This document shows, piece by piece, positions 1-12,381 of a stretch of DNA of 64,000 nt. The stretch is taken from the NCBI GenBank assembly GCA_965214605.1, contig OZ243961.1:1696001-1760000 (forward strand), given 5' to 3'. Each line of letters opens with the position of its first letter. Position 1 is the stretch's first letter. The notes below the pieces were generated by a model. That model searched no databases. It saw nothing but the letters and a program-made list of their open reading frames with translations, and was not told where the DNA came from. The translations under genes were made by a program, and so were the position numbers. This DNA comes from an uncultured Candidatus Binatia bacterium (GTDB lineage Bacteria > Desulfobacterota > Binatia > Bin18).

Positions 1-501
1 GTCGGCGCGCGAGAACTCGAACTCTTCCAGCATCAGGCGGTCGCCGTGCGCAATCAGCGGGCTGTCCTTGGCGCAGACGGCCTTGGCACAGACGGCCTTG
101 TCTTTCTCGACCGTGGGAATCGCGGGGAAGTCACCGCTGCTGACAAGCCCAAGATCACGTTTGAGCCGGTTCAGCACTGCTGGACACGTCACCCAAGCGA
201 ACACGCCGGTCAGCGAGCGGACTGGGAAGGCGAGAATGCGGGCGTCCGAGAACGTGGCCGCGCCGGCATGGTCGGACGCGGCGTCGGTCTCCGGCCCGAA
301 TGTTGCCAGGACATCCTTGTCCTTCCGGTTGTCTTTCGCGCATTCGGCCCGCAGGACGCCCTTGAGCGACGAGCCGGGGATCAGCGGCCAGTTGGTGTGA
401 CGTTCGCGCTGCACCGGCAGATCGACCACTCCCAGGGCCGTGCCGCTGCCGGGATGAAGTCCCGTCAGAGCGTGAATAAACAGTAAGGTTTTGTCAGACA
501 T
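1..501 (-). CDS. cmr4: Type III-B CRISPR RAMP protein Cmr4 (runs off window start)
   Basis: Not in ORF track. Manual translation from ATG at 501: MSDKTLLFIHALTGLHPGSGTALGVVDLPVQRERHTNWPLIPGSSLKGVLR, the typical Cmr4 N-terminus; overlaps the cmr3 stop. Confidence 0.93.
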   Translation of the reverse strand, partial: MSDKTLLFIHALTGLHPGSGTALGVVDLPVQRERHTNWPLIPGSSLKGVLRAECAKDNRKDKDVLATFGPETDAASDHAGAATFSDARILAFPVRSLTGVFAWVTCPAVLNRLKRDLGLVSSGDFPAIPTVEKDKAVCAKAVCAKDSPLIAHGDRLMLEEFEFSRAD

Positions 502-1594
502 AGCTCCAGTTCCCCTCCACAAAACAGCCCCAGCCGACGCGCGCATCTTCATCATTGACGAGTTGGCGTGGGACTTGGGCGTTTGGCTCTACGAAATACA
601 CCGATCCGGCCGGGACCATGAAGCGGTTGGGCTTGGGGCCGCCCTTAGCCAAGTCCCAGCCGGAAACAGACTGATGTTTGCCCACAGCAGCGGCCACCGG
701 CTTGATGCCCGGCGGCTTCCAGCCGTTGAACCACGCCGGCGTGGTCAACAGCACCAGTCGGCCTCTGTTTGGCTCGGGTGGAATGTTTGGCCAGCTCATG
801 CCGTGGTCAGCAGCACGGACGACGACGTGCCGGCCTTCACCGCCAAACTTCATTAGGACCGGTTCAGTCGCAAGCGGGGCCAGGACGTCGGCAGGGCCTT
901 TCAGTTCGGCGTACAAGCCAGCCGTGGGCTTGATGACCAACATGCGAACAGCGTAGATGCGACCTTCCTGCGCGGCGTTGCGTTGCGGATCAACACTAAT
1001 ACCGGTGCGGTTGTCAAACTCGTAGACCTCCTTTTCCGGTTCCCGGATCAGATCGCCCGGCTCCGGTAGGCCACCTTCAAGGAAGCGACCCAGACCAGAC
1101 AGCTTGAGAAACCCGTCGGCGGCCTCTACAGTCTCCCGGCCACAACGCCACCACAGGGGCAGCATCTCCGGGACTTGGGGTTGCCAACCAGGCAACGGGG
1201 TTTTGAGCGGGTCTAGTCGAACCAGCCGGGTTTTCTTTTCCTGTCTGAGGGTTTTCTTTTCCTGTCTGAGGTTGGCAGGGACTGGGATGAGCACCTCGCC
1301 GTTCAGGGTGAACCATGGGCCACGTGTCCGCACCGAGGCCACGGCCGCAGCAGTGGAGCCGAACTCGCCAAGCGCTTCGGCAAGAGGGACCCCATTCCTG
1401 GTGTGTTCCCCCAGCCGATCGAAATCCACCCCGTGCCGCTCCATGAGGAGGGTTCGCACCGCACCCGCCAAGGTCTGCGGCATGGGCAGGCCGGAGGACA
1501 CACGGCTGGCCGGCTCGAACGGTCGTGCATCCCGGAAGAACAAACTATCGACCGGCTCGATCTTCAGCCGGATCAGGGTATCACCGTCAGCCAT
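494..1594 (-). CDS. cmr3: Type III-B CRISPR protein Cmr3 (Cas5 group)
   Basis: EPVDSLFFRDARPF, PMPQTLAGAVRT, KFGGEGR, SGWDLAKGGPKP..VPAGSVYF, C-terminal GWG; lies between cas10 and cmr4. Confidence 0.93.
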   Translation of the reverse strand: MADGDTLIRLKIEPVDSLFFRDARPFEPASRVSSGLPMPQTLAGAVRTLLMERHGVDFDRLGEHTRNGVPLAEALGEFGSTAAAVASVRTRGPWFTLNGEVLIPVPANLRQEKKTLRQEKKTRLVRLDPLKTPLPGWQPQVPEMLPLWWRCGRETVEAADGFLKLSGLGRFLEGGLPEPGDLIREPEKEVYEFDNRTGISVDPQRNAAQEGRIYAVRMLVIKPTAGLYAELKGPADVLAPLATEPVLMKFGGEGRHVVVRAADHGMSWPNIPPEPNRGRLVLLTTPAWFNGWKPPGIKPVAAAVGKHQSVSGWDLAKGGPKPNRFMVPAGSVYFVEPNAQVPRQLVNDEDARVGWGCFVEGNWSYV

Positions 1595-4217
1595 CGTGAC
1601 CTCGCGCTACAAAAGCTGCGCCCTGGCACAGCAGAATAAATGATTCGAGAAGTTTCGCCCTAACACCGGGATTGTCCTGGGCATAGCGCCGCCACCAGTC
1701 TTCTACGTCTTGACCCGAAAGGGCGTTTGAGTCTGACGCCGTGGCATCTGTGGACCGATTGACGAGCCGGCGTATCTCAGCAGTGACAGCGTCACAGGAA
1801 ACTGCACGGAGGGTCGGGAGTTCCTGACGCAGACGATAGGTCCAGCGGTCGGTCGATCCGGCGGTGAAGCTCGCTACCAACTGCTGGAACCATGACGCAA
1901 GCTTCCACGACAACCCAGCCTCGGAGTGTTCACCGGAGCGGCGCATGAAGCGCAGCATCAGCCGATTCCGTCCGCTGTCCTTGGCCGCTTGTTCGGCTCG
2001 GCGTGCGGCGTCAAGTGCCAGGCGAAGATCCTCCATGTAATGGACAAAGGCAATGCCGGCAGACAGGGTGGCGTTGCTCCCCATCATCAGCAGCTGGCGG
2101 TTGTCTCTCTCTGTCCAGCCGGGCGGATCTCCGTCCTCGCCACGAAAGGCGCGGTATAGCTCAGCCGCGCACTTGACCGCCTGGCGCGCCGGCAGCAGGG
2201 CCAGGACGTCGTCACCGCCTGAGTAGATCAGAGTGCCCTTATGCTCTTCTACAATGCCGGGAGCAATATGGCTGGCAAAATTGTTGAGGGCTTCGCTGAT
2301 GGCAGCGTGTAGGGCCGGCCCAACGGGACGCTTGGCGTCAAGGCCGGCTTTGGCCTTGACGCCAAGCCGTTCGTAGTAGTCCACCATCTTCGGGTGAAGA
2401 ACTTCGCACACCCGTGGCGCGTAGTCGCCCTTGAGCCAGAAGCCCATGTGGTCCGCATCCATTACCAGGATCGCATAGTACGTGGACGGTTTTTGCTTCT
2501 TCCGCGCGGCCTCTATTCTCTCCCAGACCTGTTCCGGAGGGGGCGGGTCGCCCTCTTCCACATCATCACGGCGCTTTTGGTGAAGCCAGCGTCCGCTCCA
2601 ACTCCCGTGCCTGCGCCGGATTTGATCGACCTCAAGCTTTTCTTTGGCCAGCCACTCGGCGGCGGCTACGGTCGCCGTGTCGGGGAAACGCAAGTCGGCG
2701 GGTTTGAGATGCAGTTCGCGGGTAAACGTTGCCGGGGCGGCGAACCGCTTGCACAGCGCAACCGCGGAAAAGCGCTCACTCTTGCGCAGGCGAACACCGT
2801 CGACCTTGACTTTGGCAGTCGCCTCTTTCCAGAAATTGCGCGAATCGTTCAGGTTTGCCGGCCCCATTTGCTCATAGGAGCCGAACAGGCTGCACTTGGC
2901 CGGAGCGTTTTCCTCCGGCGTGGTTTGCCTCACCGTGGGTACGTGTCGAATAGATCGCTGCGCTTCCATCAGCCGCGCCGAGACCTCAAGCTGGGCCTGC
3001 CAGCGGCCAGCGGAGCGCTGATCGTAGCGCGGGCGCTCGTTCTCTGGAATCGCATCGGCAAGCCTGCGGACCTTGCCAGCCTCCTGCCACACCTCATCGA
3101 AAGAGGCGGTGTTGGCGATGAGCCGCGCGAGACACTCGTCTTTCATGTCACGCAGGGGCAAAGTAGCCGTCCGGACCTCGAAAAAGCTCTTGATCTGAGC
3201 GTCCCAGTGCCGATCCCATTCGGGATGAATGGCATACAGCCTGTGGGCGACGAGACAACGGCGGACATCCTCTGCCAGACGACGCCACGCCGCGCGGACC
3301 GCCCCGGCGCATTTGTCGGCCATGTCCTGAACTGTCGCCCCCTCGGGTCCCCCCGGAACAACTGCAACAAAACGGTTGGGGATGGACGGGGAGCGGCGCG
3401 CCTGTATACTTGGTTCGGGAACACGGTCGTCCAGCCCAGGTTGATCGCGCAACCACAGGTCCATCAGCGGATTCCCGCGCAGGGCCGGGTAGACCAACGC
3501 GGTGGGGCCAAGTGTTTCGAGCACCGGGCGGAGCCCCTGGAAGACGAGCCACGACAGGGTGGCACTGCCGGTCCACAGATCGCGCACGCTGCGGGCCGCC
3601 TCAATGAAACTTTGCACCGGACTGAGCGAGAGCGACAGGAGGGCTCCACCGTGCGCACCTTGCCTGCTGGCCCACAGGCCGCTGGTAATGTCTGCATGCT
3701 GGGTCAGGGTATGGTCGGGAATACGGGTGTCGGCGGGCAGACGTACGAATGCGTGCCCCAAGCACTTCGCAAGCCGTTCGGGCAGGAGTCGCCAAAGAGC
3801 TAGAAAACGGGAACGTGCGCACGGCAGATCATCGACGATACTGCCGATAGTCTCAAGCACCTGCTCCTCGGCAACAATCAACCCCTCCAGAGTGTTTCTG
3901 CCTGCGCTAACCGGGTGGCATGCGTCCAGCCGGCCGTCTTCGGGGCCAACGGCGCGTTCCCCGTTTCGGCCGGCGGTCGGCATGGGAACCCGCTCGGCGA
4001 TTGCAGCGAGCGAGTCTGCTAACGACGCCGAACTTTTGATCTCCTTCCGAGTCACGTCACGGTCAAGCGCGCGGGAGGCGTACCGGGCCGCCCGAGCCTC
4101 GTGCCCCCGTATATCGAGTGCCTTGTCGACAGGGTCGTGCAGATAAGCCACCAACAACTGATCCCAATCAACGAGGTCGAGTCCGGCCGACTGTTTATTT
4201 AAGGCGGTTTTTTCCAT
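1587..4217 (-). CDS. cas10: Type III-B Cas10/Cmr2 with HD motif and GGDD palm
   Basis: N-terminal YLHDP, LPADTRIPDH, PVQSFIEAARSVRDLWTGS, YYAILVMDADHMG, IYSGGDDVLALLP; ATG at 4217 preferred over track start 4241. Confidence 0.95.
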   Translation of the reverse strand: MEKTALNKQSAGLDLVDWDQLLVAYLHDPVDKALDIRGHEARAARYASRALDRDVTRKEIKSSASLADSLAAIAERVPMPTAGRNGERAVGPEDGRLDACHPVSAGRNTLEGLIVAEEQVLETIGSIVDDLPCARSRFLALWRLLPERLAKCLGHAFVRLPADTRIPDHTLTQHADITSGLWASRQGAHGGALLSLSLSPVQSFIEAARSVRDLWTGSATLSWLVFQGLRPVLETLGPTALVYPALRGNPLMDLWLRDQPGLDDRVPEPSIQARRSPSIPNRFVAVVPGGPEGATVQDMADKCAGAVRAAWRRLAEDVRRCLVAHRLYAIHPEWDRHWDAQIKSFFEVRTATLPLRDMKDECLARLIANTASFDEVWQEAGKVRRLADAIPENERPRYDQRSAGRWQAQLEVSARLMEAQRSIRHVPTVRQTTPEENAPAKCSLFGSYEQMGPANLNDSRNFWKEATAKVKVDGVRLRKSERFSAVALCKRFAAPATFTRELHLKPADLRFPDTATVAAAEWLAKEKLEVDQIRRRHGSWSGRWLHQKRRDDVEEGDPPPPEQVWERIEAARKKQKPSTYYAILVMDADHMGFWLKGDYAPRVCEVLHPKMVDYYERLGVKAKAGLDAKRPVGPALHAAISEALNNFASHIAPGIVEEHKGTLIYSGGDDVLALLPARQAVKCAAELYRAFRGEDGDPPGWTERDNRQLLMMGSNATLSAGIAFVHYMEDLRLALDAARRAEQAAKDSGRNRLMLRFMRRSGEHSEAGLSWKLASWFQQLVASFTAGSTDRWTYRLRQELPTLRAVSCDAVTAEIRRLVNRSTDATASDSNALSGQDVEDWWRRYAQDNPGVRAKLLESFILLCQGAAFVARGHDG

Positions 4218-4243
4218 CAGGTTCTTCCCTCGCAGCTCCACAG

Positions 4244-5440
4244 TCAGTCCAGCAGTAGACTCAGATTTTGGGCCAGAACAGTGGGTAGTTGCCGACGGTC
4301 TTTAAGCAGTTTTCTGCTTTCGGGCTTGGCTGGATCGGTGCCATGCGCCAGCGTGTTTCTCAAATCCTTCAGAGCACGGTAGGCAGTGAACCGTTTGCCG
4401 GTCAACGATCCCTGGTTCATGGCGGCGGTGACTTTGTCACGGTCGTCGTGCTTGTCGGGACTCAAGCCGCCTCTTTCGCACTCCCGCGTGACCACGGCTT
4501 CCGAGCCGAAAATGGCGGCGCGCAGAAAATCACCGCGCTCCAGATATTTCTTTGCCAGAAAGTGCTGACGGCGAGAGCGTGGTTCGCCTTTCGTCCACCC
4601 AAGCGCCTCTCTTAGTTTATGCTGAAACAATCCCGACGCGCCTTGCAGCTGTTCATTCAAAACGGGCAGGAAGGTGTCCAGACCACGCTTGGCATCCCGA
4701 TCGTTGGAAGTGCGCTCATAAAACGCGGCGATCTCCAAACACTGAGCTTTGTCTTTCGGCACCCCGTCTTCGAGCAATAACGGCACAAAGACCCCGTAGT
4801 CACCGTTCGCGTCGAATCGGTCCAAGGCATCCACCCAACGCCGCACCAGAACCAGGCCGTCGAGCTTGAGCACGGGCGCGATGTCGTCACGCATCATGTC
4901 GAGCGCCCCATACCAGAGGTGGTCAACCTGCAAGGTGCGTATCCGCTCAAGCATGAAGGCGGATAGGAATCCGATCATGCCGAGATGGCGAAAGCCATGG
5001 GTAAGATCGAAACTGAGCTTACCGTCCGGAACGGTATCGGCAATAGCGCTTAAGATGTCGTATTGCTCAGCGAAGTCGGCCCCGAACGGAATGAGGCGCG
5101 GAACGACCTGCAGGCCAACGGCTTGACTCATGATTGATTCCACTTTGTCGAGCATGGCTTGGGTTACCGTTTTTTGCGTTTCCGCTTCGAGCAATTCAAG
5201 CCGCGCATCTTCGTCCTCATCCACGGAGGCAAGGCTTTCGACCAACACGCCCCACATGCTGCCGCTCGTGCCCAGAATCACCACGCTGTCCGCGTCAAGG
5301 TGGCGTGCCAGCTCCAGACCGAGAAAGGCGGTTTTTTGCAGCTGGCCATCGGGGAATCGGTAAGTCGCGGTTCGGTAGCCCATCTGCCTATCTTCCCGGC
5401 CCCTGCCAAGAAATGTCACGAGTGTGTTGGTTTTATTCAT
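4244..5440 (-). CDS. csx1: Csx1-family (TM1812/DxTHG) CARF-HEPN ribonuclease
   Basis: TLVTFLGRG..YRTATYRF, GTSGSMW, FDLTHGFRH (DxTHG), C-terminal HEPN motif RNTLAH. Confidence 0.9.
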   Translation of the reverse strand: MNKTNTLVTFLGRGREDRQMGYRTATYRFPDGQLQKTAFLGLELARHLDADSVVILGTSGSMWGVLVESLASVDEDEDARLELLEAETQKTVTQAMLDKVESIMSQAVGLQVVPRLIPFGADFAEQYDILSAIADTVPDGKLSFDLTHGFRHLGMIGFLSAFMLERIRTLQVDHLWYGALDMMRDDIAPVLKLDGLVLVRRWVDALDRFDANGDYGVFVPLLLEDGVPKDKAQCLEIAAFYERTSNDRDAKRGLDTFLPVLNEQLQGASGLFQHKLREALGWTKGEPRSRRQHFLAKKYLERGDFLRAAIFGSEAVVTRECERGGLSPDKHDDRDKVTAAMNQGSLTGKRFTAYRALKDLRNTLAHGTDPAKPESRKLLKDRRQLPTVLAQNLSLLLD

Positions 5441-5649
5441 TGCGCTCCCCGCCATCGTCCAAAAAGAGAAGACTCCCCCGTCTCCAGCGGCCCGCCTCTG
5501 CGTGAGCCGGACTCAACACCAGAAGGCAAGCCCCCGGCCGTATTCAGTATCGTCGTCTTGATGCCTGTCTGCGTCTCACTGCTGATTGTATCGTCTTTGA
5601 TGTTTCTCTCCATTGCGATGAGCTCTCCGTGCCTGCCCTGCTCCGGCAT
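5437..5649 (-). CDS. Small hypothetical ORF (70 aa) coupled to csx1
   Basis: ATG 8 nt after a TGcTATGAT -10 box; its TGA overlaps the csx1 ATG (ATGA). No recognisable family. Confidence 0.4.
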   Translation of the reverse strand: MPEQGRHGELIAMERNIKDDTISSETQTGIKTTILNTAGGLPSGVESGSRRGGPLETGESSLFGRWRGAQ

Positions 5650-5702
5650 GAATACCTATCATAGCAGCTATCACCGGGCGCGCCTTATTTGGCAAGCTTG
5701 CC
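5649..5702 (-). promoter_or_regulatory. Putative promoter with palindromic operator upstream of the csx1-cmr operon
   Basis: Minus strand: GGCAAGCTTGCC(A)-N26-TATGAT-N8-ATGCCGGA; perfect 12-bp palindrome at 5691-5702. Confidence 0.6.
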
Positions 5703-6956
5703 GTCCCTCGGGCCGTCGCGCTCGGATGGGTCGATGACCTCAAATCGGATGGCGGACACTGGAAGGTCTATACCGAACCGTTGTGAGCCAGACTGTTCCG
5801 TAGCAACGATTGTATATATCGCAGCACGGGTCCTACCGAGGGCTGGACTGAGAACCTGCTTGAGCTGCCGATTCAGCTTAGACTTGGTCTGCGTGAAGAA
5901 CTCATGATGCATGCCCTTCGCCATTGCTTTGCTGGTGCGATCGTCATTACTCCGCTCCCTAAATACCGCACGGTATTCAGCGACATATGCCGACCGTGGC
6001 AGATCAATTGAGGAAGGTTTCCACTCACCAAGTATCGCGCGATATTCTGCCAGATACTCATCCCGATAGTCTGCTTCATACACGGCCTCGTGCCGAATAG
6101 GGCAGGTCACGCCTTCTTCGTCGTGAATGCGCCGACGGCCCAGCCACGCCAGAAAGGCGAGTTGAGTCGGAGGCAGTTGCACGACCCGACCTCCGGCACG
6201 AATGCGTTTGCCGGTCAGGTCTATTACGAGTTCGGGCGGTCCAACGGCGAGTTGCGCTGCCTTGACCGTATTGACGAAGCTCTCCTGACCATTGAGAAGG
6301 CCCTCGGGCAAACCCTCTCGAAGCCGCACGAACGGAATGGTCGCCAGGGTCACCTTTGCCCGGTTCGCATCGTGAGGGCGCTTGTCGCGGTCGTGGATCA
6401 CGCGCCGGCTGCGCGATGGGTAGAAGAAGTTTGGCAAGGATTCATACGGCGCAGAGACCAGCACGTGGCTCAGGCGATCTTGGGCACGTCCGTAGAGCGA
6501 AAGCGCATAGCCAGTGTAGAAGCCCATCGTCTTCCTACCGCCGGCGATAGAGACGTGGAGAGCCGAATCCCGATCACTTGTGAGCTTACGGACCTGTTCC
6601 GCGATGTGATCGGCGGCGACATCGTTGTCTTCTTCCGTGCGAATGTCTGTCAGCGGATCAGAGCCACCGATCACATGGATATTGTCCGGCGAAAAAGCGA
6701 CGGGCGGCAGGTCGTATTCGTCGCACAGCCGACCGAGCCAGGCGTCGCCGGCCAACAGACTGAGTTCGGCATTGCGCTTGCCTTCTTTGGTGGTCAGCAA
6801 GTGGATTTCTGTGGGAGTGAACCGTGGTTCTCCCGCAACCGCCAACGCGTAAATGGTCTCGGTCACCACTTGGGGCGACAGACCGGTGGCAGCGAGTAAA
6901 ATACGATGCGGGTATTCGTATGGAGCCAATCCAGAGTGACGTTTGTGATCCGGCAT
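5685..6956 (-). CDS. NE0113/Csx14-family CARF protein (ring-nuclease-like) with probable C-terminal winged-HTH region
   Basis: RILLAATGLSPQVVTETIYAL, IHLLTT, DIRTEEDN, LHVSIAGGRKTMGFY, LYGRAQDRLSHVLV, IPFVRLR. C-terminal LVIDL..VQLPPTQLAFLAWL..FFTQTKSKLNRQL resembles OmpR-like wHTH tails. Confidence 0.88.
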   Translation of the reverse strand: MPDHKRHSGLAPYEYPHRILLAATGLSPQVVTETIYALAVAGEPRFTPTEIHLLTTKEGKRNAELSLLAGDAWLGRLCDEYDLPPVAFSPDNIHVIGGSDPLTDIRTEEDNDVAADHIAEQVRKLTSDRDSALHVSIAGGRKTMGFYTGYALSLYGRAQDRLSHVLVSAPYESLPNFFYPSRSRRVIHDRDKRPHDANRAKVTLATIPFVRLREGLPEGLLNGQESFVNTVKAAQLAVGPPELVIDLTGKRIRAGGRVVQLPPTQLAFLAWLGRRRIHDEEGVTCPIRHEAVYEADYRDEYLAEYRAILGEWKPSSIDLPRSAYVAEYRAVFRERSNDDRTSKAMAKGMHHEFFTQTKSKLNRQLKQVLSPALGRTRAAIYTIVATEQSGSQRFGIDLPVSAIRFEVIDPSERDGPRDGKLAK

Positions 6957-7007
6957 AGGTCTCAATATAACCAATTCTCTCCATTTGCTCCGATCTGGCA
7001 AGCTTGC
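6956..7007 (-). promoter_or_regulatory. Putative promoter with palindromic operator upstream of the NE0113 CARF gene
   Basis: Minus strand: GCAAGCTTGC(CA)-N26-TATATT-N7-ATGCCGGA; 10-bp palindrome at 6998-7007. Confidence 0.6.
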
Positions 7008-7112
7008 GGTTACTGACCGGCTCGGCCTTGGCTGGAGAGGGGACAGGACAAGGGCAAAGGGAGTAGAGTCTGAAGCCGCAGACGGGCCCTCATCACTCTC
7101 CGAGAGGCCTGT

Positions 7113-7485
7113 TCAGCCCACCTTTAACCTCTTCCCACTCGTTTGGCTCCCGCCGGCGACAACCTGCCGGTGCATTTTTGACCCGTGCTCATAAAAGCGG
7201 GCGGCCCAGATACCGCTGAACGACTCGTTCTCCCCAGGCATTCTCCAGGTCATGACCTTAGCTGATCCAAGCGTCACGCCAATGAGAGCACGTGGTTGGT
7301 CGTGCGTCTCCGTCAGATAATGACCGCCTGACTCTTCATCCACATAACGCATGGTAATCCGGCGGTAGATATCGCGCCAGGCATCGTCATGGCCAAGTGG
7401 ATACAGCACCTCGGCTTTCCCCTCAACCAACACCTTGCGGTACAGACCTGATTCTTCGTCAATAGTAATAGCAACACAGGCATCT
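7113..7485 (-). pseudogene. 5'-truncated pyridoxamine 5'-phosphate oxidase-like (PPOX) gene
   Basis: CVAITIDEESGLYRKVLVEGKAEV..ITMRYV..AKVMTW is the C-terminal half of a PPOX-fold protein; upstream DNA is res-derived. Confidence 0.65.
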
Positions 7486-7869: not shown

Positions 7870-9818
7870 TCAGTTCGCAACGCTTCTCGCGAGCAATTGG
7901 TCAACGCTGGCAGCAACCTCGTAGCGGGCCGGATTTTCCCCGACCTTGAGCGCTCGAAAGTGTACCTTGCCGCATTCGATCTTGCCGGCTTCCGCGAGGC
8001 GGAGATCGTCCAGGAGGGTGCTTGCTTTCGTCTCAACGACGAAATAAACGCGTTCGCCCTCATCCGTGTCGGTGAGAACGGCCCAATCGGGGTTGTAGCT
8101 CCCGAGCGGCGTCGATACCTGAAACCAACCCGGTAGCTTGACATAGAGCTTGACGGCGGCGTTCTTTTCCAAATCGTCAGCGAACCGGGCCTCCGTGTCA
8201 GACTCGTAGATGACCTTCTCGTGGACCGACTTCTCAGCCTTGAGCATATTCTTCAGGTAGCCGATAAATTCCTCCTGCTCAAAGAATTCCTGAGCGTAGT
8301 AGGCCTCGTCCCCTATCCGTTGGTATTTTATGCCGGCGACCAGCGCTCGTTGCTTACAACTGTTGATGGCCTGCGCGGCAAGCTCAATGAACTGCTGCGG
8401 ATTGCGCTTGAAGTCGTCAAGGCGCTGGCTGCCGACGAGAAGTCTATGGATGCTGCGCCGGGTGAGCTGCGTCCGGTCCTGAAGCTCGGTGAGTAGGTCC
8501 GGTAGTTCGATATCGGTCTCTTCGAGGACGACGGTCGCCGACCCGGCAATCTCGGTTGCCTCGACTCCCGCCTGACCGATGGCTATGTCCGCCTTGCGCC
8601 ATTGCAGACGGGTCCGGGGGATTGGCTCTGCAGTCTGTAACGCAGTGGCCGAGTTCTTCAGCAAGGCTTCATTGTCGAAGGTCACGCTATAGTTGGTCTT
8701 GTGCTTGATGCGGTCCCACAACGCCTTGAACTCGGCGCTAGCGAGTACGGCTTGGCGCGGGCGGACAGTTTGCCTTTCGTCGGCATTCCTGACTTCCAGA
8801 CGCCCCGAGAGTTTGCGCAACACCGAAACGATCTCCGTCCGGTGCGCAGCAAATTCTTCGGGCAGGGCAAGAGCGTCGTCCCGGATCGCCTCCCGGAGAG
8901 AGTCCTGTATCCGCCCTCTGCGGTCGATATAGCCTTCTGCCTGCAAGTGGTCGAAAAACGCCTGCGACTTGTCGAAACCGAGGGTTGTTGTTTCTCCGCC
9001 GTCGCCGGTTACCGGAATCTGCGCGAACTGATAAGGCGATAGATCATGTGGTGCTTGTCGACGTGCGTTGCCGAGTAACGCAGCGTGCAGAGCGGGTTCA
9101 TGGCGTCCAGCGCTTTTTTGCCCCGTCCAGCTAGGCCGCCGTCCACGCTTTGCGGCTCGTCGATGATCAGTATCGGGCGCGTGGCCCGGATAAGGTCTAT
9201 CGGCCTTTCGCCGCCCGTCTTCTCGTTGTTCTTGTAGAGGTTGTTGACATCCTTCTTGTTGATGGCGCCGACCGTGACTACCATGATCTGGATTTGCGGG
9301 CTGGTGGCGAAATTGCGGACCTGGCCGAGCTTTTCCGAATCGTAGAGGAAGTACTCGAACGGCGTGCCTGAATAGAGCGTCTGGAAATGATCGTCGGTCA
9401 TCTGGAGCGACTTGTAGACGCCTTCCTTGATCGCAACCGACGGTACGACGATGACGAACTTGGTGAAACCGTAGCGCTTGTTCAATTCGAAGATCGTGCG
9501 CAGATAGACGTAGGTCTTGCCGGTGCCTGTCTCCATCTCCACGGTGAAGTCGCCGGAGCCCAGAGAGACGGACGGCGGCAGGCCGTTCCGAAGCTGGATG
9601 TCCTTCAGGTTCGCGAGAATCTCGTCGTCGAGCAACGTCAGCCGGTTGCCGACGCCGAGGTCGTTCTGGGCGAAGGCCAGCCGCTCTTGCCGATCCCACC
9701 GATCCCGGGTGACCGTGAACTCCGTCCGGCAGACCTCCTGACCGCGGAATAGGTCGCAGACGGCATCCACCGCCTGGAGTTGGAAATCGAGGTTGGGCTC
9801 GAAACGGAGCTTCATCAT
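7870..9818 (-). pseudogene. res: Type III restriction enzyme Res subunit, internally deleted and frameshifted
   Basis: N-part MKLRFEPNLDFQ..EMETGTGKT..IIDEPQ..LRYSATH; out-of-frame junction near 9035; C-part YVKLPGWF..YNPDWAV..VVETK (PD-(D/E)xK). Confidence 0.9.
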
Positions 9819-9857
9819 GCCGCAAGCTTCTCTCAACTATGTTACTACGCCATGCGG

Positions 9858-10073
9858 TCAAGCAAGCATCAGCCGTTCGCCCTTCGGCTGCGGGACCGGC
9901 CGACCCAACTCCTGCGCTCGCTCGACCCAGAACCGCATGGCGTCCTTGACATTTCGCAACGCGGTTTCCTGATCGTCTCCGTGCGCCATGCATCCGGGCA
10001 GTTCGGGGGCCTCAGCGATGAACGCCTGGTCCTCGTTGCTCCAGTAGAGAATGATCTCGTATTTGTGCATCAA
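9858..10073 (-). CDS. hicB: HicB-family antitoxin
   Basis: MHKYEIILYWSNEDQAFIAEAPELPGCMAHGDDQETALRNVKDAMRFW..GRPVPQPKG. Confidence 0.92.
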   Translation of the reverse strand: MMHKYEIILYWSNEDQAFIAEAPELPGCMAHGDDQETALRNVKDAMRFWVERAQELGRPVPQPKGERLMLA

Positions 10074-10458
10074 TCGTCTCCTCCCAGCCTGTATTTCATA
10101 ATGAACTGCCGGACCTGCTTCACTTGGTAGGGCTTGGCGTGTCCGCCACGGCTTTGCAGATTGACAATTTCCACCATACCATCCTTGTCGAACAGGTGAT
10201 GGCTTCCGCGTATGCGCTCCTCGAACCTGTGGGACCCCATCCGATTCGTGCCCATGGAGGCGGATGGCTTCCGCGTATGCGCTCCTCGAACCTTGCCCGC
10301 CACCTGGGCCGGGGTGGCGGGCGCGATCACGGATGGCTTCCGCGTATGCGCTCCTCGAACCCCAAATACTCCATCAGGGCACGCAGATCGGAGAACCGGA
10401 TGTTCGCGTCCGAGCGTCCCCGGAGAATTGTCTGCAAAAGCCGCTCATGCCGGTTCAT
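10070..10458 (-). pseudogene. hicA: HicA-family toxin disrupted by two repeat-spacer insertions
   Basis: Removing 134 bp (two repeat+spacer units) restores a 255-bp ORF: MNRHERLLQTILRGRSDANIRFSDLRALMEYLGFEERIRGSHHLFDKDGMVEIVNLQSRGGHAKPYQVKQVRQFIMKYRLGGDD. As present, a TGA follows ...RGSHP. Confidence 0.92.
10198..10361. repeat. CRISPR-like mini-array: 3 x 30-bp exact direct repeat with 35- and 39-bp unique spacers
   Basis: GATGGCTTCCGCGTATGCGCTCCTCGAACC at 10198-10227, 10263-10292 and 10332-10361. Confidence 0.95.
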
Positions 10459-12381
10459 GGACTATCATCCCCAACCCGCCGGTATCACACCGCACGTTGC
10501 CGAGGCCGCGCTGCTTGAGAGTCTCGGCGAGGTTCGCCTTCGCGACGTCGTCTGCGAAAGCGCTGTCACGGAAAATGACGGTGGTCTCACCGGCGGGGGC
10601 GAGCGCATCATGCCAGTCGGCTATGCCCGCCGCCAGCGGCTCCACATCATCGCGAGAAACTGCTTCGACAAGGCAGGCGATCAGCGTGCCGGCGCCGACC
10701 GAGTGCACGCACTTGCCCGCGATGGTCTTTGTCTCGATGGGCACGCAGAGATCAAGACCGAGCTTCAGTAGGAGTTCGTAGAGAATGTCTTCCTCGCTTC
10801 GATCCGACTTAATGTGGTCGATGCTTCCGAGCAACGTCCCATCCAAATCTTCGCGGTCTGGTTCCCAGGCACGGATGTTGGACGAATCCAACTTGAAGAC
10901 CCTGAAGCCGGTGTCGCCCTTGTGGTCGGGATTCTCAGCTTTTATTCGCTCACCGGCAGCCTTTGCGCGCGCCTTTGTCACTTCGAAGATAGTCGAGAAC
11001 TGCTCATTTCCTGCTACAGGCTCTGGCAATTGAACCAAGATGAAGCGACGGTAACCGCCCTCATCCCTGTTCAACAACTGTATGACAGCGTGGCCGGTGG
11101 TCCCACTACCCGCAAAGAAATCCATGACAATAGCATTTGGATCCTCGCCAGTGACGGCGAGTAGACTGTCGTAAACAGACCAGAGGCTCTTGGGAAACGT
11201 AAAAGGCGAGTCTGGAACAAGGTCTCTAACTAATCTTGTTCCGTAGTCATTCGCGTCATACCTCTTGTCAGTCCAGACAGTCCTAAAGCGCCCAAAGTCC
11301 TTTCTTATCTCAATCTCGTAACCTCCATCCTCTTCCTAGGACGAAGCAGGTGCTTTCTGGCATCAACCGATTGCCTGACGTATCGCCACTTTCGCTCGGT
11401 ACCTGACTTGTCGATCGGGTAGACGTAAACAGCCTCACATCCATGGACGCTCTGCCGTGGATGGAAGTCGTCATCACATACATCGCCGAAGCCGGTAATC
11501 TCACCATCCTTCACTATTATTGGATAGAAGCAATTCTTCGCATCCTTTCTTTCAGACTCTGTTCCCCAATTCCTGAATTGGGACCACTTCTTCTCGGATT
11601 CATCAATCTTCCTATCGGAAATTGCTTTCGTTCCACTTGGATAGACGAAGAAGGCATATTCGTGGACATATGAGAAGTTCCGGCCCTGCACTCCTCGCGG
11701 ATTGTGCACAATCGGTACACACACGTGATCGTAACTACCCTCTTCATATATTTCCTTTAGGACCATCCCCAACTGGGTTACTTCATTGTCGTCAATCGTA
11801 CAGATAAGTACTCCGTCCTGCCTAAGGAGATTCCTGGCGACCTTGAGCCGTGGATAGATCATGGACAGCCAATTGGTGTGAAACCGGCCACCGATCATGG
11901 GATTACTAGAAAGGCTCACGCCTCCCTCGACTTGGCCGGTTACTTCAAGATAAGTGCGAATACCATCGTGATAATCGTTGGGGTAAATGAGATTCTTACC
12001 GGTGTTATAAGGAGGATCGATATAGATGGCTTTTACGCGGCGACTGAAACTCTTCTGCAGGAGTTTCAGCACCTCCAGGTTGTCGCCCTCGATCACCAGG
12101 TTCTGAGTGGTGTTCCAATCGACGCTCTCATCGGGACATGGGCGGAGTGTGCCGGTGGACGGAGTGAGAGCAAGCTGCCGTGCGCGCGCTTGCCCGTGCC
12201 AGTTGAGGCCATACTTTTCCTCGCGATCGTTCACAGCGTCGCCGAGAAGCTGCCGGAGCACCTCGAAGTCTATCTTTCCCTCGGAGAATGCTTCGGGGAA
12301 CAAAGCCTTCAAGCGTTCGAGGTTGTCGGCAAGGATATCCGCGGAGCGGGTTTCCGGGTCGCCGCCGCCGATCTTCTCCAT
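10445..12381 (-). pseudogene. mod: Type III R-M DNA methyltransferase Mod, frameshifted
   Basis: EKYGLNWHG, IEGDNLEVLKLLQKS, IYIDPPYNTG, then a frameshift near 11325 into DGGYEIEIRKDFGRFRTVW..FTFPKSL..MDFFAGSGTTGHAV..DTGFRVFKLDSSN. Confidence 0.9.

Follow-up and report, generated by a model that had tools for sequence, protein, structure and literature searches.

A short palindrome occurs twice, each time in the same promoter-like arrangement, on either side of a gene for a CARF protein in a type III-B CRISPR-Cas locus of an uncultured Candidatus Binatia bacterium. The locus lies in a stretch of 64,000 nucleotides (nt) of contig OZ243961.1 (assembly GCA_965214605.1, positions 1,696,001 to 1,760,000), here called the window, whose coordinates are used throughout. 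The gene encodes a protein of the NE0113 family that ends in a winged helix-turn-helix (wHTH) at its C-terminus, hereafter the CARF-wHTH protein. Comparison of homologous loci indicates that the palindrome, with the extended consensus CGGCAAGCTTGCCG, is probably the operator of the protein encoded between its copies, through which that protein would control its own gene and the adjoining effector operon; the CARF-wHTH protein itself is very probably what binds the palindrome. An initial annotation of the window had proposed such a circuit, in which a dimeric CARF protein governs both transcripts according to the level of cyclic oligoadenylate (cOA). That interpretation as a whole is partly supported, and its core is well supported by the comparative evidence.

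On the minus strand, both direct reading of the sequence and a pattern search give GCAAGCTTGCCA-N26-TATATT-N7-ATGCCGGA at 6949..7007, upstream of the CARF-wHTH gene (site A), and (G)GCAAGCTTGCCA-N26-TATGAT-N8-ATGCCGGA at 5642..5701, upstream of the csx1-cmr operon (site B). The composite GCAAGCTTGCCA-N26-TATNNT-N7/8-ATGCCGGA that the initial annotation had pointed out matches twice in the window and not once in 100 dinucleotide-preserving shuffles. As was also remarked at that time, the 26-nt spacers of the two sites are unrelated sequences, so plain duplication does not account for the twin sites. A scan of the whole genome (4,374,632 bases) finds the 12-mer GCAAGCTTGCCA at sites A and B only, and the relaxed pattern GCAA[GC][GC]TTGC in 11 copies, a density of 2.5 per Mb from which it follows that the palindrome is not a genomic repeat family. 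The bare 10-mer palindrome has five genomic copies, close to the frequency estimated for chance, and two of these are the copies found here, 1306 bp apart. A chance repeat, or the remnant of a local duplication, could be argued from that frequency, but the absence of the composite from every shuffle, the unrelated spacers, and the recurrence of the element in 67 of 89 loci described below leave this explanation with almost no probability.

The comparative set comprises 89 distinct loci, taken from relatives and from one genome per GTDB species; duplicates (L025, L026) and partial or weak matches (L018-L024) were left out. The loci span Binatia, Gamma- and Betaproteobacteria, Acidobacteriota, and one metagenome-assembled genome (MAG) of Desulfobulbaceae, thus at least four phyla, and their proteins are 32-78% identical to that of the window. 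Motif discovery in the flanks of homologues, which the initial annotation had called for, was carried out without reference to the motif, by counting every 4+4 palindrome with a gap of 0-8 nt in the 150 nt upstream of the gene. The palindrome CAAG-CTTG ranks first (58 of 89 loci) and GCAA-N2-TTGC second (47 of 89), and both fall outside the 12 commonest palindromes of gene-interior controls. The 200 nt that precede the gene contain GCAAGCTTGC without any mismatch in 51 loci, with one in 16, and with two in 7, so that 67 of the 89 carry it with no more than one mismatch. In the 617,083 nt of these loci there are 117 copies of GCAA[GC][GC]TTGC, as against 4 copies of each of two control palindromes of the same composition. 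The palindrome is therefore, as had been suggested, a promoter-proximal element tied to genes that encode a CARF domain with a winged helix, in 67 of 89 loci and 28-29 nt from the -10 element. Counts of GGCAAGCTTGCC at the level of whole genomes were rejected as a discriminator: it has 1-3 copies in 26 of 61 relatives, and the control sites (17 in 15 genomes) are similarly spread.

The distance between operator and promoter is fixed. A -10-like nAnnnT follows the 10-mer after a spacer of 28 nt in 45 of 69 sites and of 29 nt in another 17 (62 of 69 together). The operator centre thus lies about 33-34 bp upstream of the -10, near -45.5 by the usual numbering; the initial annotation had placed the palindrome just upstream of the -35 position, and indeed it overlaps no core element. 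In the homologous promoters the best match to TTGACA at a spacing of 16-18 nt is distributed as at random positions, which gives no sign of a -35 element, and no more than 12 of 91 sites have TGn ahead of the -10. Lack of a -35, in most cases combined with lack of an extended -10, is the usual signature of activator dependence. OmpR/PhoB regulators, to which the C-terminal domain is related in fold (see below), activate sigma-70 promoters by binding where the -35 element would be or immediately upstream of it. On the operator position and the absent -35, it seems somewhat more probable that the CARF-wHTH protein activates than that it represses.

The same protein and the same operator could also serve the opposite purpose, with the apo-protein repressing (or negatively autoregulating) the type III locus and cOA releasing it. 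Bacterial regulators most commonly act negatively on their own genes, and type III effectors carry a high cost. At site A, moreover, a sigma-70 scan also reads a promoter, TTGCCA-16-GAGAAT, whose -35 (TTGCCA) consists of the right arm of the palindrome and its flank, so that a bound dimer would cover it; such an arrangement would favor repression and weighs against activation. The -10 position of this candidate promoter is, however, not enriched among homologues: offsets of 18-20 nt past the 10-mer are occupied in 15 of 69 sites, summed over three offsets, against an estimated 13 or so by chance. The -10 fixed at 28/29 nt instead places a conserved operator upstream of the -35 position, where it overlaps no core element and from which OmpR/PhoB-type domains usually activate, and the lack of a -35 above background together with the rarity of TGn is typical of activator-dependent promoters. 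Repression thus appears the less likely of the two.

In the promoters of the regulator gene the start codon stands 6-8 nt past the -10 in 26 of 46 cases, so that a leaderless mRNA of the regulator, with its predicted transcription start site (TSS), is a conserved feature of Binatia and of several proteobacterial loci (e.g. Rhodoferax). The initial annotation had assigned leaderless-type starts to both transcripts of the window. This holds for the CARF-wHTH gene, whose start at ATG 6956 is set by N-terminal alignment with homologues; the same alignment disfavors an alternative TTG at 7001, inside the palindrome. It does not hold for the start at 5649, which would open a 70-residue open reading frame (ORF; 5437..5649) that has no counterpart in relatives: no homologue was found past site B in L008, L010, L011, or L013, and the ORF was rejected as a real leaderless gene. 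The csx1-like gene itself starts at 5455, about 190 nt beyond the predicted TSS of site B. An Rfam scan of 5300..7400, which takes in the leader of the csx1-cmr transcript, gave no match at E ≤ 1, and folding of the ~190-nt site-B leader gave no sign of structure (z = -0.63). A weak terminator-like hairpin with a U-tract stands at 5468-5485 (-), in this genome-specific leader right before the csx1-like start codon; it may be due to chance, as the scanned region has 4 such sites against 1.5 expected. The sequence ATGCCGGA shared by the two predicted starts, which had been listed among the features of the circuit, must be dropped from it: this 8-nt identity is particular to this genome and not conserved. 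Just past operator A (window 6985-6995 and the equivalents in L008-L013) the Binatia relatives have C(A/G)G(A/G)(C/T)C(G/A)GAC in common, e.g. CGGACCGGAC, and CCGGA is also found within ATGCCGGA at both predicted starts of this genome.

Site B lies within the codons for the DGKLAK terminus and stop codon (5685..5687) of the CARF-wHTH gene. Among close relatives, G034, G006, G001, G020, and G027 retain it at the gene's 3' end, followed by TGCTATNNT, and TGCTAT at its -10 is kept in five of six copies from relatives, the sixth (L021) having TATAGT without TG. The form GGCAACGTTGCC stands at the gene end in L014-L017, L022, L139, and L141. In L014-L016 the site-B palindrome falls in another reading frame, which points to constraint on the DNA and not on the protein tail. 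In L110 (G027:C1:5048001-5066000), a decayed copy of the regulator in two fragments (10408-10988) has retained its site-B palindrome, GCAACCTTGC, and precedes a cas10-cmr operon that is intact; the G027 genome has an intact paralogue at another place, which could act in trans on this site.

Such copies at gene junctions might alternatively be junction or recombination sites that shuffle type III modules (cas6, regulator, effector operon) and not transcription signals at all. The losses seen among relatives could be taken in the same sense: in G035 site B is gone along with most of the csx1-like gene, and G007 lacks the regulator, the csx1-like gene, and both sites. Recombination sites would not be expected, however, to keep a fixed 28-29 nt to a -10 element and a constant orientation towards the downstream gene, and the leaderless starts 6-8 nt past the -10 in 26 of 46 promoters link the element to promoters. 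No recombinase was found adjoining the sites in the annotated loci. A role in module shuffling is therefore very improbable.

Identification of the regulator rests on its two domains. The CARF domain is secure: Pfam Cas_NE0113 (PF09623) matches residues 27-234 (1.9e-49; 168.7 bits against a cut-off of 23), and TIGR02584, which NCBIfam names "ring nuclease Csm6", scores 225.5 bits (cut-off, 80.65). The full-length protein as modeled by AlphaFold2 has a pLDDT of 88.8, and a Foldseek search with its CARF domain returned 35 matches at E ≤ 0.001, of which all those listed are CARF proteins (Cad1-CARF, Csm6, Cam1, Can2, Crn1). The family is large, with more than 4,500 proteins (4,565 at E ≤ 0.001 among 8,000 candidates scored), and the 120 homologues listed, mostly 375-430 residues long at 85-100% query coverage, indicate that the long form is the norm. 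A full-length profile found nothing under E 0.6 among PDB sequences, so that no solved structure of the family could be found by sequence.

The wHTH-like tail noticed initially can now be described as a winged helix of the OmpR/PhoB fold, on the strength of both a structure search and a sequence profile. Modeled separately with 48 homologues, the C-terminal 188 residues reach a pLDDT of 91.2. When this model was compared with 48,161 chains by VIA-align, the top 24 entries were all DNA-binding domains of the OmpR/PhoB type, with 78-101 residues aligned and Z scores of 8.0-5.3, of which a value near 8 is middling by the tool's own note. The best matches are BaeR (Z 8.0, root-mean-square deviation 3.1, 100 residues aligned), CadC (Z 7.8), and VanR (Z 7.8). 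A sequence profile of the domain independently matches RstA (2.2e-5) and KdpE (0.004) among PDB sequences, followed by MtrA, PhoB, and others. The agreement of the structural ranking with these independent matches makes the fold assignment credible. The predicted recognition helix (residues 351-373) contains FFTQTKSKLNRQL.

That the protein is dimeric, as had been supposed, is supported by modeling. The homodimer model is two-fold symmetric, with its interface within the CARF domain, and scores 0.78 against 0.00 for the best of three controls; contact agreement in the runs was at least 58% and partner pLDDT at least 82. The mark for this score is attained by 20 of 30 proteins solved as pairs and by 1 of 23 solved as single chains, although the pass may come from likeness to CARF dimers already solved.

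The name that the databases give to the family raises a different possibility, namely that the winged helix, instead of binding DNA, governs a ring-nuclease activity that resides in the CARF domain, as reported for Sis0811/Sso1393, and that some other factor binds the palindrome. The wHTH of the large form of Crn1 is reported to be auto-inhibitory (PMC10018336). The residues S/T27 (GLS/TPQ motif) and K142 (GGRK motif) are conserved or invariant across 32 aligned sequences; compared at the level of CARF motifs, they may be the counterparts of Crn1 Ser11 and Lys106. Judged from the database name and these residues, the chances that the CARF domain cleaves cOA are about evenly balanced. The palindrome, however, travels with the gene across at least four phyla in otherwise unalignable DNA, for which a host factor is no explanation; the loci have no other DNA-binding protein in common, and operator variants follow the recognition helix. 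The two roles are, moreover, compatible with each other. A winged helix that serves the nuclease and leaves the palindrome to another protein is thus improbable.

The relation between operator and recognition helix is best seen in distant members of the family, whose palindrome variants include GCAACGTTGC and GAAACGTTTC. Of 29 loci from the wider phylum, 8 have GAAAnnTTTC in their promoter zones, frequently as two tandem copies 11 bp apart; it is 22.6 times as dense there as elsewhere in those loci, and the counts for three control patterns are 0-1. The -10 lies 28-29 nt from the proximal copy and 38-40 nt from the distal copy. In loci L112-L141 (L125 1409-1430, L131 1470-1491, L137 124-145), tandem GGAAAC(C/G)TTTCCGAAACGTTTC sites 11 bp apart stand at the promoter of the distant NE0113 homologue or of the next gene; this looks like a diverged operator whose spacing to the -10 is unchanged. 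Recognition helices with QTKSKL occur with GCAAGCTTGC, those with QVCARI or SYVSKI with GCAACGTTGC, and those with QNISKI with GAAAnnTTTC. That operator type tracks the recognition helix is suggestive, given that the comparison involves a few clades and not many independent events.

Loci without the regulator provide a further comparison. In G007, of the same genus, the cmr operon is kept at 59-80% protein identity and the cas10 leader is still recognizably akin to that of G006 downstream of the -10, and no palindrome with one mismatch or none is found in 18 kb. The test of long against short forms of the homologues that the initial annotation had envisaged is weak, nearly all family members being long. 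Part of it could be made with two Csx14-type CARF proteins that lack this tail, encoded beside cmr2 (227 residues, and 291 residues fused to an HTH of the LuxR type); neither gene has the palindrome. The model NF040581 (Crn1) weakly matches these Csx14-type neighbors, in G017 and G015. The fused form of G015 (L023:1471-2346 (+)), a Csx14-type CARF joined to a LuxR/NarL-type HTH that adjoins cmr2 with no GCAAGCTTGC, is a second, distinct CARF-HTH architecture in the same bacterial family. The Chromatiales do not permit a with/without test, since all 22 of the 22 csm1-bearing genomes searched also carry the NE0113 family.

The genes that follow the element form a small set. Among 98 sites with a correctly spaced -10 and an ORF no more than 300 nt away, the gene that follows is the regulator itself in 46, a RAMP (Cmr1/6-like) gene in 10, cas6 in 8, cas10/csm1 in 7, a small glycine-rich membrane protein in 2, a csx1-like gene in 1, and DUF2130 in 1; the 23 sites with no assigned gene mostly have a short spurious ORF picked by the assignment rule. 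Pfam and NCBIfam searches with representatives confirmed the family names for 7 of 7 cas6, 2 of 2 csm1, and 1 of 2 RAMP genes, and the others were named by BLAST to representatives. In G001 and G027 the operator-B promoter precedes not a csx1-like gene but a conserved glycine-rich protein of 72-73 residues (L011:1220-1441 (-) and the matching ORF of L013), with …GFATAGAALGKG…GLAGYGLYRL…, probably membrane-spanning and without a match in Pfam. One possibility is that it acts as a small membrane effector controlled in the same way.

These observations can be combined into a mechanism. Copy A of the operator would drive the factor's own leaderless mRNA, and copy B, within the last codons of the same gene, the csx1-like/cas10/cmr3-6 operon. 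Cas10, with its GGDD motif intact, would make cOA once the Cmr complex meets invader RNA, and the CARF dimer would bind it. The winged helices might thereby be set to fit the palindrome and RNA polymerase be recruited, so that factor and effector complex would both rise in positive feedback. The CARF domain, if it is also a ring nuclease, would remove the signal and reset the circuit. By analogy with Csa3 and from the makeup of the locus, cOA made by Cas10 may well be what controls binding or activation.

Several points weigh against this interpretation. The C-terminal tail (residues 235-423) has no match in Pfam, and 48 such C-terminal domains gave nothing relevant at E ≤ 1; Foldseek with the C-terminal model found nothing in the PDB at E ≤ 0.001, the weak top entries being BaeR, CadC, EmbR, ToxR, and PhoB. 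Half-sites about 7 bp apart, center to center, leave unusually little room for two winged helices, and the usual targets of OmpR/PhoB domains are direct repeats. There is no GCAAGCTTGC within 200 nt upstream in 15 of the 89 loci, several of these genes lying directly behind cas6. Of the 29 distant loci, only 4 have GCAAnnTTGC and only 8 have GAAAnnTTTC in promoter zones, and 17 are without either exact pattern. Among 22 csm loci of Chromatiales, the exact palindrome is upstream of csm1 in 10, and in 8 none with one mismatch or fewer is found in 1.4 kb. The with/without evidence amounts to one congeneric genome and two Csx14-type loci, and related loci are not independent samples. The precedents are also not wholly favorable: for Csa3, the nearest characterized analogue and the only cOA-binding transcription factor so characterized, cA4-dependent specific DNA binding could not be demonstrated in the in vitro work described in PMC8699464 (cA4, cyclic tetra-adenylate), and the wHTH of the archaeal Crn1 relatives Sso1393/Sis0811 is reported in PMC10018336 not to bind DNA but to act as an auto-inhibitor of the ring nuclease.

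Comparison with known systems shows what is shared and what is different. Csa3 proteins, the CARF-wHTH transcription factors of type I-A loci (Csa3a/b of S. solfataricus and S. islandicus, Csa3 of T. thermophilus), combine a CARF sensor with a winged helix, are dimeric, and have palindromic promoter-proximal sites in CRISPR loci (CAPPa, TCCC-N8-GGGA, just upstream of BRE/TATA). Csa3, which binds cA4, has been proposed to feed type III signaling back on CRISPR gene expression (PMC8699464, PMC8844856, PMC9704534). In contrast, the present protein has no Csa3 sequence membership: NCBIfam at E ≤ 0.01 gives TIGR02584 and Csx14 only, and no Csa3 chain is among the Foldseek matches listed. Its DNA-binding domain has the OmpR/PhoB fold with inserts, its predicted operator is a compact palindrome of 14 bp whose distance from a bacterial -10 is fixed, and its sites lie in type III-A/III-B loci and include the factor's own leaderless promoter. 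The large forms of Crn1 (Sso1393, Sis0811; CARF7 and wHTH) resemble it in having a CARF domain, a C-terminal wHTH, and no other effector domain, and in their type III association; NE0113 carries the ring-nuclease label in NCBIfam, and the small-form structures 7z55 and 7ygh are among the CARF-domain matches. The Crn1 model NF040581, however, has no match to the window protein at E ≤ 0.01, and the auto-inhibitory wHTH of Crn1 has no operator described in the portions of PMC10018336 and PMC9638899 that concern it. No ring-nuclease assay of an NE0113 protein was found in the literature searched.

The likeness to OmpR/PhoB regulators extends to the N-terminal β-sheet, the recognition helix, and the wing of the C-terminal fold. 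The sensor here is a CARF domain, occupying the N-terminus in place of the phospho-receiver of that family, the tail has no match to the Pfam family Trans_reg_C, and it bears helical insertions (about 50-70 residues). In the site the half-sites are inverted and ~7 bp apart, as against direct repeats 10-11 bp apart. CalpL-CalpT-CalpS likewise turns a bacterial type III cOA signal into a transcriptional response, as outlined in PMC11229360, but by a SAVED-Lon protease and release of an extracytoplasmic function (ECF) sigma factor, whereas the sensor and regulator would here be one component.

The idea that NE0113 proteins are transcription regulators is not new, since Makarova et al. predicted in 2014 that Csa3 and NE0113 proteins "regulate transcription directly" (PMC4012209). 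Later surveys have taken other directions: a 2022 review gives Csa3 as the sole characterized CARF effector that is not a nuclease (PMC9704534), a 2024 survey of type III systems states that it put regulators aside (PMC11229360), and a 2025 survey of ring nucleases applied a 250-residue cut-off that would leave out the ~400-residue NE0113 family (PMC12409355). The operator, the regulon, and the OmpR-like fold of the tail were not found described in the literature searched, which did not extend to supplements or to the 2020 CARF classification, so that an earlier mention is possible. What appears to be new is a bacterial, type III associated CARF-wHTH regulator with a predicted OmpR fold and a defined predicted operator.

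The locus in which the circuit would operate is type III-B and has the parts required for cOA signaling, a pathway made plausible by the SGGDD of Cas10 and by two CARF proteins with R-x(4-6)-H motifs read as HEPN-like. Its features within the window are collected in Table 1.

Table 1. Coordinates of the predicted circuit and its genes in the window (all on the minus strand)
Feature	Position	Remarks
CARF-wHTH coding sequence, 423 residues	5685..6956	NE0113/TIGR02584 CARF domain and C-terminal winged helix
CARF domain, about residues 17-235	6252..6908	GLS/TPQ (S27) and GGRK (K142) motifs conserved; bears the dimer interface of the model
Predicted C-terminal DNA-binding domain, about residues 236-415	5712..6251	OmpR/PhoB-fold winged helix with helical inserts
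Predicted recognition helix, residues 351-373, HEFFTQTKSKLNRQL...	5838..5906	DSSP helix; aligned to the RstA recognition-helix region (weak second stretch)
Predicted operator A, CCGCAAGCTTGCCA	6996..7009	10-bp palindrome at 6998..7007; 12 of 14 positions agree with consensus CGGCAAGCTTGCCG
-10 hexamer TATATT, CARF-wHTH promoter	6964..6969	begins 28 nt past the operator-A 10-mer
ATG start of the CARF-wHTH gene	6954..6956	7 nt past the -10; predicted TSS of a leaderless mRNA
Predicted operator B, CGGCAAGCTTGCCA	5690..5703	10-mer at 5692..5701; overlaps the last five codons of the CARF-wHTH gene
Extended -10 TGCTATGAT, csx1-cmr promoter	5658..5666	28 nt past the operator-B 10-mer
Predicted csx1-cmr 5' leader, ~190 nt	5456..5651	found in this genome only; contains the 70-residue ORF 5437..5649
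Terminator-like hairpin	7201..7216	upstream of operator A; consensus scan only
TM1812/Csx1-like CARF protein, 403 residues	4244..5455	TIGR02221, 2.5e-48; RNTLAH HEPN-like motif
Cas10/Cmr2	1587..4241	SGGDD cyclase motif intact
Cmr3	494..1594	

The hairpin upstream of operator A, if it acts as a terminator, would insulate the CARF-wHTH promoter from the upstream gene. The operon runs on past the first position of the window, where cmr4, cmr5, a cmr6-cmr1 fusion, a TIGR02710 CARF gene, cas1, and the CRISPR array follow. Among named relatives of the locus, MAGs of Binatia are the nearest. Cmr6 and Cmr1 are joined in a single ORF of 799 residues (L105 10784-13183 (-)). The array, outside the window (L105 5747-7739; G000:C1:1687747-1689739), has at least 25 repeats of 37 nt, GTTTCAATCCCCTATCAAGCGGGGCGTAGGTTTAAAC, and adjoins cas1 and a small cas2-like ORF; its leader has no visible operator-like palindrome. 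No cas6 was found in the 18 kb examined. Beyond the array, also outside the window (L105 3-2414; G000:C1:1682003-1684414), several tblastn fragments 58-75% identical to Cas10, with broken frames, are probably the remains of a second cas10. Immediately upstream of the CRISPR locus, at 7870-9993 (-), lies a gene for a 707-residue protein that has a restriction-endonuclease domain (PF19778) at its C-terminus and is weakly similar to type III restriction-modification endonucleases; its position beside the CRISPR locus suggests a defense island.

[quoted passage not shown] Here a very large bacterial family is associated with a sharply defined predicted operator, a fixed promoter geometry, and a small predicted regulon, and control of transcription by cOA thereby becomes testable with a 14-bp oligonucleotide and a reporter. 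The analysis suggests that the database name "ring nuclease Csm6" covers at most half of the protein. It is tempting, if distinctly speculative, to view the NE0113 family as a portable, host-independent, one-component controller of type III immunity, in which a cOA-sensing CARF dimer would induce cas6 and the effector operon along with its own leaderless gene, all from promoters without a -35, by way of a near-invariant 14-bp operator, and would then end the pulse itself by destroying its ligand as a ring nuclease. If this is true, operator and protein, conserved across phyla and diverging together, would supply orthogonal cOA-inducible promoter systems.

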